NCBI RefSeq assembly: GCF_000020385.1
Contig: NC_010814.1
Span: 2,520,001-2,552,000, forward strand
Reading direction: 5' to 3'
Length of the DNA stretch: 32,000 nucleotides
Source: Trichlorobacter lovleyi SZ
GTDB lineage: Bacteria > Desulfobacterota > Desulfuromonadia > Geobacterales > Pseudopelobacteraceae
Below are positions 6,721 through 10,010 of this stretch, in pieces. Position 1 is the stretch's first letter. Every line of letters starts with the position of its first letter. A program made the translations under genes and the position numbers. The notes below the pieces were generated by a model. It was not told where the DNA came from. It worked only from the letters and a program-made list of their open reading frames with translations, and searched no databases.

Positions 6721-7383
6721 CTATCCGCGCCCAAGCAGCCGGTTGGCTGCTGCGTTGTTCGAAAAGCGCTGAGGCAGGGCGTATGCCTTTTGAGGCATTG
6801 CCACAAAATCACCTTTGGTCAAGGTTACGTAAACCGATCGTATCTCATGGGCTTCATTGGTTCCCGGATAGATAATTCCCAGACTGGCAGGCACATAGAG
6901 GCGCCAATCACACTCAAGAACCTTAAAACCGGCGCAGTTGCTCAAATAACGTAAACAGTCCGGGGTATACCGCCAAAAATCACCGGGTGACGGATGGTAG
7001 GGATAGGCAAAAACGGTTTCAATAATCAGCAAACTGTTATCTTTCATTATTTTAAACAGTGCGTCGAAAACCTTGAAAGGATTTTTGACATGCTCGATAA
7101 CATTCAGACAGACAGCGGTACTCACTCTGTTTTCAAAGATATAGGGCAAATATTCTATTGCAGGGTCACCCTTCTCCGGATTCAAAATTATATAGTCAGG
7201 ATCAATATGATCAAACGGACGCTGCGCCAATGATATCGAGCTGGCCTCCTGATCACCGCTAGCAATAGTCAGATCATAGTCGGCAATATACGGCTGTTCC
7301 ATCCCGCCTATGTCGACAAGCGTTCCGCGCAGGCCATAGCGTGCTATTTGCTCTGTTACCAGCTTGATATCATCCCAGAACAT
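6721..7383 (-). CDS. Class I SAM-dependent methyltransferase (about 220 aa)
   Basis: It has a TLVDIGG glycine-rich motif and a downstream CLNVIEHVKNPFKVFDALFKIMKDNSLLIIE block typical of Methyltransf_11/23-type enzymes. I prefer the ATG at 7383 because it overlaps the upstream stop as TAATG and has a GGAGAG RBS. The longest ORF would start at 7404. Confidence 0.6.
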   Translation of the reverse strand: MFWDDIKLVTEQIARYGLRGTLVDIGGMEQPYIADYDLTIASGDQEASSISLAQRPFDHIDPDYIILNPEKGDPAIEYLPYIFENRVSTAVCLNVIEHVKNPFKVFDALFKIMKDNSLLIIETVFAYPYHPSPGDFWRYTPDCLRYLSNCAGFKVLECDWRLYVPASLGIIYPGTNEAHEIRSVYVTLTKGDFVAMPQKAYALPQRFSNNAAANRLLGRG

Positions 7384-10010
7384 TATGCTCTCTCCTGCAA
7401 CCAATAACGCTTAGTATGCTGATGCGGAAAAATACCCGTACAATCATGGCAGATTGTCTCGCAATAGCCATCACCGCTTTGCTGATTTTTCAATAACGCC
7501 CTGCAATACCGGTATGCTTCGCCATTCCAGATTTCCCAGAAGTCGTCAGTAACAATATTGCCAATACGGTATTCCCGCATGCCTGAAGGGAAACAACAGG
7601 TATACCAGTCGCCGTTCCAATCGATCGTTACATGGTTGTACGGTTCTGAACATGATCTCATGGTCCCGTAGGGAAAGTGTGGCTGAAAATCCGGATGCGA
7701 CGGTATGTAACCGTTAGCTTGAGCCTTGACCCGACCATGTTGAGACATGTACGACATTTTTACAAAATGCACCGAATCAACACCTTTTGCCTTCCAGAAC
7801 TGTTCATACTGCGGCATCTGGTGTTCATTAAAGGCAAAAACAATACATTGCATTTCTATATGCGGCTGCAGTGTACGCATGCGGCGTTTTTGCAGAATAA
7901 TATTTTCAACTGACGCCACAACCTTAGCAAAATCACCACCGGAACGATATTTTTGATAGGTTGCCTGGTCGAGGCCATCACATGAGACAATCAGCTTATC
8001 AAGCCCTGACTGAATCAGTTGCAGACCTGTTTCCTCAGTGTACAGCATCATGTTGGTACTCAGTTGAGTACGGACATGATAGCCCTTTGCATATTCAATA
8101 CATCGAAACAGGTCTTTATTAAGAAGCGGCTCTCCCCAGTTATAGAGTAAAAGTGACTCGATCTCCGGCAAAAGCTTATCCAAACCGGCCTTAAAGGTTG
8201 CAAGGCGCATCGTGCCCCGCTCTACACCCGGAAAATGCTGTCTCATCGCCCCCGTGTTACACAGTGAGCACTGCAAGTTACAACTGTTTGACATCTCGAA
8301 GATGGCATAGGTCGGTTTGTTTTTGATTGTCATCAGCTGATGTTGCGCAGAAAACTGACTGAGGCATGAGTTAATCATGCGACGAGTCTGCAGCTCTTTT
8401 TGTTGCCCTCCGGCTTCACAGCAATGCGCTAAAAAATACTGTTTGTGCACAGGCGTATCAACTTGCCTGATAAAGTCGCCAAGCTGGTTGTAGTGAGACC
8501 ATTCAGCAGCATCTGCTACCGGTGTTTTACTGTTTTCTGGGGCAATGCGCTTAAACACAAATCCCTCAAAGGTTGAAGGGATGTTAACGCTGTCCTGGGC
8601 TGAAAAATTTGCCACTATCTCATACTCAGCCGAAAACAGCTGGAGAAACTTCTTTTTCGAGAAAAACCATGCCGGATAGGAGGCCTCATAAATTTCCGGG
8701 GATACAAACTGCACCGTTAAACGGTCATTGTCCCCCTCTACAAAAGGGGTCCGGTCAAAAAGTATATAGTCGAAGTTGTAGGCAAGCAATTCTTGAATGA
8801 ATTCGTATGGGTTTTCCAGATACTCAATTGCAGCCGACAGCAGAATTATTGAGGGTTTTTGGCTTTGCACACACTTAGACAGGCTGCTGAAGAATCTCAG
8901 ACAGGTATCAGCAATTGACAGATTGCCGTATTCAGCGAAATGAGGCTGTTCAACGACATTCCACTTCAGCTCCCTGATGCCTGTCAGATATCCCCTTAAG
9001 GCAAAGTAGGTGCTTCCCAGTGAGCCTCCAAAATCAATCAGATTAAGTGAACTGTCATATTCGGAGGCAATATGCGGCAGCCAATATGCAAGAGGTGCTA
9101 TCCATTCATAAGGGATTGCATGAAAGACCACTGAGTCCCGTTCATAGGCGGCCTGTCCTGACTTTACCTGCAGTGCAGCATCTTTAACCTTTTCAAAAAT
9201 ATGAGGTGCATCATAGCCTTCCGCATGCTGCACGGCTTCTGCCCATGTAGAAAAATCACCGAAAAAGCCGTATTCATTATTTTTCCTTTGAAAGGGCACA
9301 CTCGCCAGAGAGGTGTCAGCAAACAATTCGTCAAAAGCAACCTGCGGAAAGATATCCGGTGAACCGCTCCTGGTTGCATCCAGGATTGAAACTCCCGCTT
9401 GGGCAGCAACAGCTGCCAGCACCTGATACTGGCGCAACAGCTGCAGATGTCCGGCACGGTGCAGCTCTACCGGCCGGTCATGGCCGTAGCCGAGCAGATA
9501 AACCTCCTTAAATCCCATATAAATCGCCGCCTGCAGTGCCATGACACAAGCCGCTTGCGTCCCTACAACCGGTTGCGTCAAATCGATCCCCTGACACAGC
9601 AAAAAATCAGGGGATGCAGAACAGTCCAGATAATAGGTTTCTGCATCAGCGATCGCCTTGCTTGTACTGTTTCTTTTGATGTCGGCAAGAGAGCAAAGCA
9701 TGACCATTTCCGGGGCATGCACACGAAGAACATTGTCGAGCGACTGCATCCAGGCATCCCAGGCTTCTTCAGAGATTGACGGACGGAAGGGGGGCAGGCA
9801 GAGATAACGGGGTTTCAGACAGCCATAGTCAAAACAAGCAGCAAAGGTACCGGCAGCAATGCAGATTTCATCTTTCAGCAACGCAAGATCATGGCTTCTT
9901 GTTGAAGACTCATCCGCAATGATAAAGCAGCGTAAGCCCCGGTGGCGATCATGAAGTACAGCATTGCGCTCACGTATATGCTGTCGTACTATTTCCGGAA
10001 GCACGTACAC
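7383..10010 (-). CDS. Triple-fusion enzyme (875 aa): DUF115/Maf-like N-domain, LIC12133 (TIGR04325)-type putative methyltransferase, radical SAM with SPASM-type C-terminal Cys cluster
   Basis: - N-terminus (nt about 9950-9320): RCFIIADESS...DLALLKDE...VYLLGYGHD resembles the DUF115/MptE-like fold, but the usual GNGPS motif is degenerate.
- Middle (from nt 9281): NNEYGFFGDFSTWAEAVQHAEGYD...LIDFGGSLGSTYF...EYLENPY, which I recall as the LIC12133 methyltransferase family.
- C-terminus (from nt about 8330): FEMSNSCNLQCSLCN is a CX3CX2C radical SAM motif. It is followed by extra Cys motifs (CSEPY...WYTCCF...CETICHDC) typical of SPASM/twitch domains. Confidence 0.7.
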   Translation of the reverse strand: MYVLPEIVRQHIRERNAVLHDRHRGLRCFIIADESSTRSHDLALLKDEICIAAGTFAACFDYGCLKPRYLCLPPFRPSISEEAWDAWMQSLDNVLRVHAPEMVMLCSLADIKRNSTSKAIADAETYYLDCSASPDFLLCQGIDLTQPVVGTQAACVMALQAAIYMGFKEVYLLGYGHDRPVELHRAGHLQLLRQYQVLAAVAAQAGVSILDATRSGSPDIFPQVAFDELFADTSLASVPFQRKNNEYGFFGDFSTWAEAVQHAEGYDAPHIFEKVKDAALQVKSGQAAYERDSVVFHAIPYEWIAPLAYWLPHIASEYDSSLNLIDFGGSLGSTYFALRGYLTGIRELKWNVVEQPHFAEYGNLSIADTCLRFFSSLSKCVQSQKPSIILLSAAIEYLENPYEFIQELLAYNFDYILFDRTPFVEGDNDRLTVQFVSPEIYEASYPAWFFSKKKFLQLFSAEYEIVANFSAQDSVNIPSTFEGFVFKRIAPENSKTPVADAAEWSHYNQLGDFIRQVDTPVHKQYFLAHCCEAGGQQKELQTRRMINSCLSQFSAQHQLMTIKNKPTYAIFEMSNSCNLQCSLCNTGAMRQHFPGVERGTMRLATFKAGLDKLLPEIESLLLYNWGEPLLNKDLFRCIEYAKGYHVRTQLSTNMMLYTEETGLQLIQSGLDKLIVSCDGLDQATYQKYRSGGDFAKVVASVENIILQKRRMRTLQPHIEMQCIVFAFNEHQMPQYEQFWKAKGVDSVHFVKMSYMSQHGRVKAQANGYIPSHPDFQPHFPYGTMRSCSEPYNHVTIDWNGDWYTCCFPSGMREYRIGNIVTDDFWEIWNGEAYRYCRALLKNQQSGDGYCETICHDCTGIFPHQHTKRYWLQERA

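Follow-up and report, generated by a model that had tools for sequence, protein, structure and literature searches.

A radical SAM fusion protein of Trichlorobacter lovleyi with a divergent MptE-like N-terminal domain: a candidate enzyme of surface-glycan tailoring

Gene and protein organisation

A stretch of 32,000 nucleotides (nt) from Trichlorobacter lovleyi SZ (contig NC_010814.1, positions 2,520,001 to 2,552,000), hereafter the window, was analysed. On its minus strand lies a four-gene operon, here called the cassette, which codes for a sulfotransferase, a fusion protein, a methyltransferase-like protein of ~220 amino acids (aa) and a 1562-aa multi-glycosyltransferase. The fusion, encoded by the second gene, is the subject of this study. 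It joins a divergent MptE-like domain, a putative methyltransferase domain of family TIGR04325 and a radical S-adenosylmethionine (SAM) domain, and a possible role in the tailoring of surface glycans is weighed below. All features of the fusion and of the cassette are on the minus strand.

The open reading frame of the fusion (7383..10010) is a single uninterrupted frame with a stop, of 875 codons when counted from the first GTG. Translation probably begins at the second GTG (10004), which gives 873 aa, has a GAGG 5 nt upstream and is used by the database copies. The protein is identical to WP_012470398.1 / ACD96065.1 of Trichlorobacter (Geobacter) lovleyi, whose public annotation is only 'methyltransferase, TIGR04325 family' or 'Radical SAM domain protein'. 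Its cluster at 90% identity holds at least 12 full-length 873-aa members from NCBI, JGI, ENA and Logan records, and other samples add full-length relatives with identities of 86, 75, 56 and 53%. Because of these copies and relatives, an assembly artefact or a frameshift is ruled out and the fusion is a real gene.

The C-terminal domain (aa 556-875, 7386..8345) consists of a radical SAM core followed by a SPASM/twitch region, as assigned with Pfam, AlphaFold2 and Foldseek. The CX3CX2C motif for the SAM-binding 4Fe-4S cluster (C577-x3-C581-x2-C584; 8259..8282; SNSCNLQCSLCN) was invariant in all 20 aligned fused and standalone relatives, and the Pfam model Radical_SAM (PF04055) matched aa 572-704 with 33.4 bits, against a gathering threshold of 29.5. 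The Pfam SPASM model (PF13186) matched aa 787-858 (7437..7652) with 50.9 bits over its full length (1-67), the threshold being 21.5. All of the 47 listed NCBIfam models of the radical SAM type scored far under their cutoffs, the best being TIGR04317 (96 bits vs 380); the domain therefore falls outside every curated radical SAM subfamily.

Canonical SPASM domains carry seven cysteines, arranged as CX9-15GX4C ... CX2CX5CX3C ... C, which ligate two 4Fe-4S clusters. The window protein has the first half of this pattern (C787-x12-G-x4-C805) and departs from it in the second (C836-x13-C850-x3-C854-x2-C857, and no cysteine at the end). Four auxiliary cysteines, C787, C805, C854 and C857, are shared by all 20 sequences of the clade, in the order C-x17-C ... 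C-x2-C. C806 is present in 18 of the 20 sequences, C637 and C677 are also nearly invariant, and C836 and C850 occur in 8-9 of them. Since only the four auxiliary cysteines are invariant, and given the published definition of a twitch-type single auxiliary cluster (PMC9012708), one conserved cluster of this type fits the predicted domain better than a canonical two-cluster SPASM. A second auxiliary cluster, not conserved in the clade, is possible in the window protein. The AlphaFold model of the domain had a predicted local distance difference test score (pLDDT) of 92. With this model Foldseek returned BlsE, CteB, DesII, BtrN, anSME and SuiB at similar scores (E 1e-13 to 1e-11, TM 0.5-0.6), and in sequence-profile searches of the PDB the best relative was BtrN (E 2e-10).

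Ahead of this domain, aa 496-555 (8346..8525) form a linker and the N-terminal helix of the radical SAM unit; the N-termini of standalone radical SAM orthologues align at ~aa 542. The middle domain (aa 246-495, 8526..9275) was assigned to TIGR04325 (LIC12133-type), a family of putative class I SAM methyltransferases, by an NCBIfam match of 202.4 bits over aa 249-479 (cutoff 80). Its motif I, D-F-G-G-S-L-G, is intact, and D81, G83, G84 and G87 are invariant in an alignment of 40 sequences. No Pfam model covers the domain and no solved relative was found in the PDB, where a profile of the 40 sequences gave only weak matches to class I SAM methyltransferases over motif I (E 0.06-1.1). Methyltransf_12/23 was reached at E<=1 by 5-6 of the 40 members (best E 3.7e-5); the window domain had no such match. 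That the domain is a methyltransferase is thus a prediction, and a reasonable inference. TIGR04325 proteins of ~570 aa are mostly fusions with GT2/GNT-I domains, so a transferase domain followed by TIGR04325 is the usual architecture. The family also occurs in lipopolysaccharide clusters, e.g. in Leptospira. A literature search found TIGR04325/LIC12133 named only in one gene-list entry, with no characterised member.

The N-terminal domain

The N-terminal domain, hereafter the N-domain (aa 1-245, 9276..10010), was assigned by profile and fold to a divergent MptE-like/DUF115 (CstII/Maf-type) fold. It has no direct sequence match in Pfam, NCBIfam or the PDB, and it does not match PF01973 even at E<=0.1. 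The N-domains of fused relatives score below threshold on the same model (15-30 bits vs a gathering threshold of 34.6). A profile built from seven N-domains recovered more than 400 proteins, mostly standalone and of ~290 aa; E values of the first 120 ranged from 1e-54 to 1e-105. PF01973 was matched by each of the 36 homologues sampled among these (best E 4.9e-13), the window copy being the sole failure among 37. The AlphaFold model of the domain (pLDDT 87.7, predicted template modelling score 0.88) was matched by Foldseek to CstII (1ro7, E 3.5e-4), to the MptE/HPPK of M. jannaschii (8sd5, E 1.2e-3) and then to CstII again (2drj), all three with probability 1.00 and a TM of ~0.48. By transitive homology and by its modelled fold, the N-domain is a member of the PF01973 (MptE-like/DUF115) superfamily. 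The fold match is in line with published work in which the PF01973 domain of Maf is described as a modified GT-A fold with a relationship to the GT42 enzyme CstII (bioRxiv 10.1101/2020.06.03.131540). Aspartate racemase, which appeared as a PDB relative, was rejected as spurious (E 1.4 with the seven-sequence profile); the single-sequence PDB search had returned 0 matches.

An earlier note on this DNA, made from the sequence alone, had read the protein as a fusion of these three domain types. The clear CX3CX2C motif that it placed in the C-terminal third and the TIGR04325 family that it proposed for the middle third both hold, and its SPASM/twitch cysteine clusters stand as far as the Pfam match goes, narrowed to four invariant cysteines that favour one twitch-type cluster. 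Among the models it had named for checking, TIGR04325 and PF04055 were matched above threshold, as was the Pfam model of SPASM (PF13186); PF01973 gave no match, so that its MptE-like reading of the N-terminal third survives through the homologues and the fold and fails as a direct match.

Conservation in the N-domain was judged against 36 homologues, whose alignment has 54 columns conserved at >=80%. The window domain retains 36 of these columns, among them S36, H177, D178 and D219, and loses 18. The family motif G-x-G-P-S is replaced by ADESS (aa 32-36, 9903..9917), a substitution the earlier note had already seen; G34, 100% conserved in the 36 homologues, is here a glutamate. In the same way G-x-D-H-D-W is replaced by GYGHDR (aa 174-179, 9474..9491), with the invariant D176 changed to glycine, and a deletion of ~31 residues after GYGHDR takes out the conserved H-F-Y segment. 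The other losses are G215S, L218P, H59C, P35S, W179R and N211D. In total, non-conservative substitutions affect four residues of 100% invariance, and the family motifs for catalytic competence (G-x-G-P-S, G-x-D-H-D-W, H-F-Y and N-A-T-x-G-G-x-L-D) are absent from the window domain in their family form. The losses are common to the closest relative, P0002. P0003 is intermediate and P0004, P0007 and P0118 are intact. P0005 retains ANGPS yet has a shortened loop.

Identity of the N-domain, the TIGR04325 domain and the radical SAM domain was 80, 90 and 90% in comparison with P0002 and 53, 83 and 89% with P0003, the N-domain being always the lowest. Ratios of nonsynonymous to synonymous substitution rates (dN/dS, Nei-Gojobori) were 0.26-0.34 for the N-domain, 0.10-0.13 for the TIGR04325 domain and 0.105-0.11 for the radical SAM domain. 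Constraint on the N-domain (~0.3 vs ~0.1) is therefore relaxed about three-fold yet still purifying. The domain has probably lost its ancestral catalysis while being kept under purifying selection, and we infer a non-catalytic role for it. The suggestion of the earlier note that this domain may be non-catalytic or divergent agrees with both the lost invariant residues and the relaxed constraint.

Distribution of the fusion and of its separate modules

The architecture was surveyed by an exhaustive phmmer search over 1.84 billion representatives at 50% identity. The three domains were found fused in one cluster at this level, represented by P0005. One other cluster (P0006) combines TIGR04325, radical SAM and a class I methyltransferase without the N-domain, and two clusters (P0374 and P0007) join the N-domain to TIGR04325. 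The remaining matches were single-domain or GT2/GNT-I-TIGR04325 proteins. At 90% identity the triple fusion forms five clusters; it is very rare. An extra C-terminal Methyltransf_11/25 domain is present in P0004, P0005 and P0006, so the window protein appears as a reduced form of a four-domain architecture. A scan of genome contigs gave three close loci only, T. lovleyi not among them.

A domain-only search yielded ~30 clusters of standalone radical SAM domains at 47-62% identity. Adjacency was evaluated in nine distinct loci that have a standalone radical SAM orthologue (52-62% identity) and testable upstream sequence. A TIGR04325 gene directly adjoins the radical SAM gene in eight of the nine (L007/8, L009/10, L011, L012, L013, L025, L026 and L027), and the fusion therefore joins conserved neighbours. 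These eight loci, for the most part polysaccharide clusters, also carry a nearby class I methyltransferase gene, 25-30% identical to the gene downstream of the fusion in the window. The survey of fused versus adjacent domains that the earlier note had proposed thus gives one triple-fusion cluster on one side and eight adjacencies in nine loci on the other.

Anammox loci with the unfused cassette, where the radical SAM protein is 59-62% identical, contain Wzm and Wzt (including Wzt_C), Bac_transf, GT4, epimerase/dehydratase and DegT genes. Judged by these families, the anammox context is lipid-linked polysaccharide machinery. The order radical SAM, methyltransferase, epimerase, DegT is common to the anammox loci and to the genes downstream of P0004 and P0006. 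In Ca. Loosdrechtia (anammox) an ATPase of a Wzt ABC transporter with the Wzt_C carbohydrate-binding domain is encoded at L007/L008 1379-2653. In characterised systems Wzt_C recognises the chain-terminal cap. By analogy, this hints at a terminal glycan modification as the product of the cassette. The S-layer O-glycan of Kuenenia is heavily methylated and has an unidentified 174-Da unit (PMC5088730), which is a circumstantial parallel only, with no gene link.

The nonulosonic-acid and deoxy-sugar clusters around P0004 and P0007 hold further, unrelated radical SAM genes: ~350-aa radical SAM/SPASM proteins (L001 3992-5041 and L005 270-1337) and a B12-binding radical SAM protein (L005 2307-3839). 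The standalone radical SAM/SPASM genes of L001 and L005 were considered as unfused equivalents of the fused domain and rejected, being only 25-27% identical to it. P0029 is a fusion of a B12-binding radical SAM protein with TIGR04325. These gene arrangements suggest that TIGR04325 domains have been paired more than once, each time with another radical SAM enzyme.

Gene neighbourhood

Between successive cassette genes there are 52 nt, then an overlap of 1 nt and then 3 nt, and the stop/start overlap TAATG together with the 3-52 nt gaps points to a single operon. The upstream sulfotransferase gene (10063..10815; Sulfotransfer_1, 63.5 bits in Pfam) probably encodes a 232-aa form starting from 10761. 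A homologue 65% identical adjoins P0005, and the gene is kept in L018, L019 and L023. The gene downstream of the fusion, MT220 (6721..7383), encodes the Methyltransf_23-like protein of ~220 aa, and its ATG overlaps the TAA of the fusion by 1 nt. The SAM motif of this protein reads L-V-D-I-G-G-M-E-Q instead of GxGxG, and no NCBIfam model matched it above cutoff. It is 68% identical to the product of the gene just downstream of P0004, whose fusion is only 53% identical. MT220 is the best-conserved component of the cassette. It was also considered as a detached copy of the fourth domain of P0004-P0006 and rejected, as it has no similarity to that domain and is the orthologue of the separate gene downstream of P0004.

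The cassette ends with the gene (2029..6717) for the 1562-aa multi-glycosyltransferase, in which Pfam recognises a GT8-like N-terminal domain, three GT2 domains and tetratricopeptide (TPR) repeats. The GT8-like first ~300 aa recur downstream of radical SAM/methyltransferase genes in L020, L024, L026, L028, L029 and L031, and only these residues are conserved beside the cassette in those six unrelated metagenomic loci.

In the relatives L018, L019 and L023 all four genes are present at the corresponding chromosomal site. The G+C content is 42% for the sulfotransferase gene, 45% for the TIGR04325 domain, 46% for the radical SAM domain and 47% for MT220 (reported range 42-48%), and 52% for the degenerate N-domain and 54% for the 1562-aa glycosyltransferase, compared with 56% for the region from 11 to 32 kb. 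This suggests a foreign origin of the low-G+C genes, and the cassette could be of mosaic composition or incompletely ameliorated. Beyond the end of the glycosyltransferase gene, a 261-aa open reading frame (419-1204, minus strand) matches DUF4372 and part of DDE_Tnp_1 and corresponds to an apparently truncated IS4-type transposase; in L018 its place after the cassette is taken by a ribonucleotide reductase gene. Two genes for FKBP-type peptidyl-prolyl isomerases lie on the minus strand, at 11013-11480 and 18248-18718. The first, SlyD-like with a weak Pfam score, borders directly on the cassette, and in L018 and L019 too the insertion point is marked by this gene. Otherwise the window holds housekeeping genes (FKBP, rhomboid, MiaA, BioB/BioD, an ATPase of the type II secretion system type and AcrB), and no flagellar genes were found among its scanned open reading frames.

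A different context surrounds the intact relatives of the N-domain. The P0004 locus holds a full cluster with dehydratase, DegT, acetyltransferase, NeuB, CTP_transf_3, a PseG-like gene and PIG-L. P0118 is a NeuB fusion adjoining CTP_transf_3, and CTP_transf_3 is the gene just upstream of both P0134 and P0138, with NeuB near. Every examined homologue of the N-domain that has intact motifs and is either standalone or NeuB-associated accompanies nonulosonic-acid genes. Because intact homologues adjoin such genes, this context supports a role of the N-domain family as transferases of cytidine monophosphate (CMP)-nonulosonates. The association is not universal, since P0007 (motif ANGSS) has no NeuB within the 17 kb of contig examined. 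Searches by tblastn with NeuB, CMP-synthetase, PseG-like, DegT and epimerase queries recovered no homologue from the window, nor from L018, L019, L023 or L004.

Proposed function

Based on these observations, we consider it moderately probable that the fusion is a multi-step enzyme of surface-glycan tailoring, which joins conserved neighbours and whose N-terminal transferase domain is non-catalytic. We infer a carbohydrate as its substrate. The earlier note had left a choice for the SPASM enzyme between peptide or protein substrates and unusual sugar chemistry, and the polysaccharide and nonulosonic-acid context favours the sugar over the peptide. Its idea of a channelled, multi-step modification gains support from the adjacency of the same modules elsewhere. 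It could name no characterised example and none was found here either.

In the proposed mechanism, the radical SAM domain would abstract a hydrogen atom from a sugar residue. Two-electron oxidation of the BtrN type, or C-H functionalisation of another kind, could be the chemistry, and the auxiliary cluster would accept the electrons. The BtrN-like reaction is our leading guess, held with low confidence; it draws on the best profile match, on the four cysteines and on the fact that ancestral cassettes pair the radical SAM gene with a DegT aminotransferase. Methyl groups would be added to that residue or to one next to it by the TIGR04325 domain and MT220, and sulfate by the sulfotransferase. 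The N-domain would derive from the family of CMP-nonulosonic-acid transferases, and in the Trichlorobacter lineage it has lost the conserved motifs for donor binding and catalysis. It would most likely be retained as a docking or scaffold module that no longer transfers nonulosonic acid.

A more specific proposal, which we regard as doubtful, is that the cassette of TIGR04325, twitch radical SAM, small methyltransferase and GT8-like modules makes an undescribed radical modification of sugars, the dead CstII/Maf-like domain having been co-opted for docking to the glycan or its carrier. If this were true, the modification could be, for example, an oxidation, an epimerisation or a C-H functionalisation coupled to methylation, possibly a cap at the chain end, and the fusion would be the Rosetta stone for glycan-tailoring radical SAM enzymes as a new family.

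Several points weigh against the assignment to glycan tailoring. No nucleotide-sugar, lipid-carrier or export genes were found near the Trichlorobacter cassette, and the TPR repeats of the cassette glycosyltransferase would also fit direct modification of a protein. The peptide-modifying enzymes CteB, anSME and SuiB score as high in fold as the sugar-acting ones, so the fold alone does not tell a sugar from a peptide substrate. In L028 the standalone radical SAM orthologue has no TIGR04325 gene within 6 kb upstream. A dN/dS of ~0.3 in the N-domain fits an altered catalytic activity as well as a lost one, and the methyltransferase assignment of TIGR04325 is drawn from weak class I similarity and nothing else. 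The literature search gave no biochemically studied member of TIGR04325 or of this radical SAM clade.

Two alternatives deserve consideration, both unlikely and to the same degree. According to the first, the protein is a maturase of proteins or peptides, in which the SPASM radical SAM enzyme acts on a protein, for instance on the flagellin, pilin or S-layer protein that the TPR-containing glycosyltransferase may target, and the methyltransferase and Maf-like domains recognise or modify that same protein. Most characterised SPASM enzymes do act on peptides (PMC9012708), three of them are among the top fold matches, and Maf proteins with PF01973 glycosylate flagellin directly (bioRxiv 10.1101/2020.06.03.131540); the TPR repeats next door and a compact cassette without export or lipid-carrier genes would suit this explanation too. 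However, the gaps between the cassette genes leave no room for a precursor-peptide gene, and no flagellin, pilin or S-layer gene is adjacent. Standalone orthologues with 59-62% identity belong to Wzm/Wzt polysaccharide clusters, the peptide-maturase models of NCBIfam are all far below cutoff (e.g. 60 vs 650 bits) and only four auxiliary cysteines are conserved.

According to the second alternative, all three domains are active. The N-domain would have acquired a new donor or acceptor specificity, for example for another activated sugar, or would carry out a pyrophosphokinase reaction of the archaeal MptE type, and the residue it adds would then be modified twice. This would explain the purifying selection (dN/dS 0.26-0.34) and the confident fold (pLDDT 87.7), and it is consistent with the 36 of 54 conserved positions that are kept, S36, H177, D178 and D219 included, and with P0005, which keeps ANGPS while sharing the shortened loop. 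Against these stand the non-conservative substitution of four invariant residues, the deletion of the H-F-Y segment and the failure of this sequence, alone among 37, on PF01973. Constraint is also about three-fold weaker than on the fused partner domains, and the genes for donor synthesis that accompany the intact homologues are locally absent.

An artefact of assembly, frameshift or gene calling, or a decaying pseudogene, has practically no chance of being the explanation: nothing speaks for it beyond the low G+C of the cassette (42-48% vs 56%) and the transposase fragment at its far end, and it is refuted by the full-length 873-aa copies in four record collections, by full-length orthologues at 53-86% identity with conserved synteny and by a dN/dS well below 1 in each domain.

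Glycan tailoring thus remains the preferred reading, and its interest is mainly enzymological. Radical SAM enzymes with cell-surface polysaccharides or glycoprotein glycans as substrates have hardly been studied; the literature search found no paper on this cassette and none linking radical SAM/SPASM with nonulosonic acids, and nothing relevant for O-antigen. The fusion together with the conserved adjacency is direct genomic evidence that the modules share one substrate. The four-gene operon is a compact, testable module in the cultivable T. lovleyi SZ, and the N-domain is a natural example of a selected domain of glycosyltransferase fold without its catalytic motifs. The impact is modest, a lead for enzymology and glycan structure with no new biological principle.

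Comparison with known systems

The N-domain resembles Maf and CstII (GT42) in that its family matches PF01973 and its model matches CstII and MptE. Intact relatives adjoin, or are fused with, NeuB and CMP-nonulosonate synthetase, and the central domain of Maf is described as CstII-like (bioRxiv 10.1101/2020.06.03.131540). In contrast to Maf, the window domain fails the PF01973 hidden Markov model and has neither the glycine that is invariant in GxGPS nor the aspartate of GxDHDW. It measures ~245 aa, has no flanking Maf domains and is fused to two other enzymes. Flagellar and nonulosonic-acid genes are absent near the fusion, which is accordingly not counted as a Maf protein.

The middle domain is comparable to the TIGR04325 proteins of O-antigen and polysaccharide loci, both in its above-threshold match and in its position behind a domain of glycosyltransferase type. 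The difference lies in the partners, as the window protein has an MptE-like domain instead of GT2/GNT-I ahead and a radical SAM enzyme behind.

Regarding BtrN, DesII and BlsE, which act on amino- or deoxy-sugars, BtrN is the best profile match, all three are among the top fold matches and the order C-x17-C ... C-x2-C is a further likeness. BtrS is the partner of BtrN, and DesI that of DesII; ancestral cassettes similarly pair the radical SAM gene with a DegT-family aminotransferase. On the other hand, identity is only 15-19%, Pfam calls the C-terminus of the window protein SPASM, and the extra cysteines C806, C836, C850, C637 and C677 leave a second cluster possible. No DegT gene was found in the sequence examined around the Trichlorobacter cassette.

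WbdD and WsaE, bifunctional enzymes of glycan chain termination or capping, are multi-domain proteins of transferase and methyltransferase modules that act on the non-reducing end of ABC-exported glycans. Capping enzymes of this type are not known to contain a radical SAM domain. The likeness to them lies in the combination of modules, and the window has no ABC transporter, whereas the unfused anammox cassettes carry Wzt with Wzt_C. Each domain of the fusion is in a known superfamily and the sequence is already public under automatic names; it is the fused architecture that sets this protein apart.

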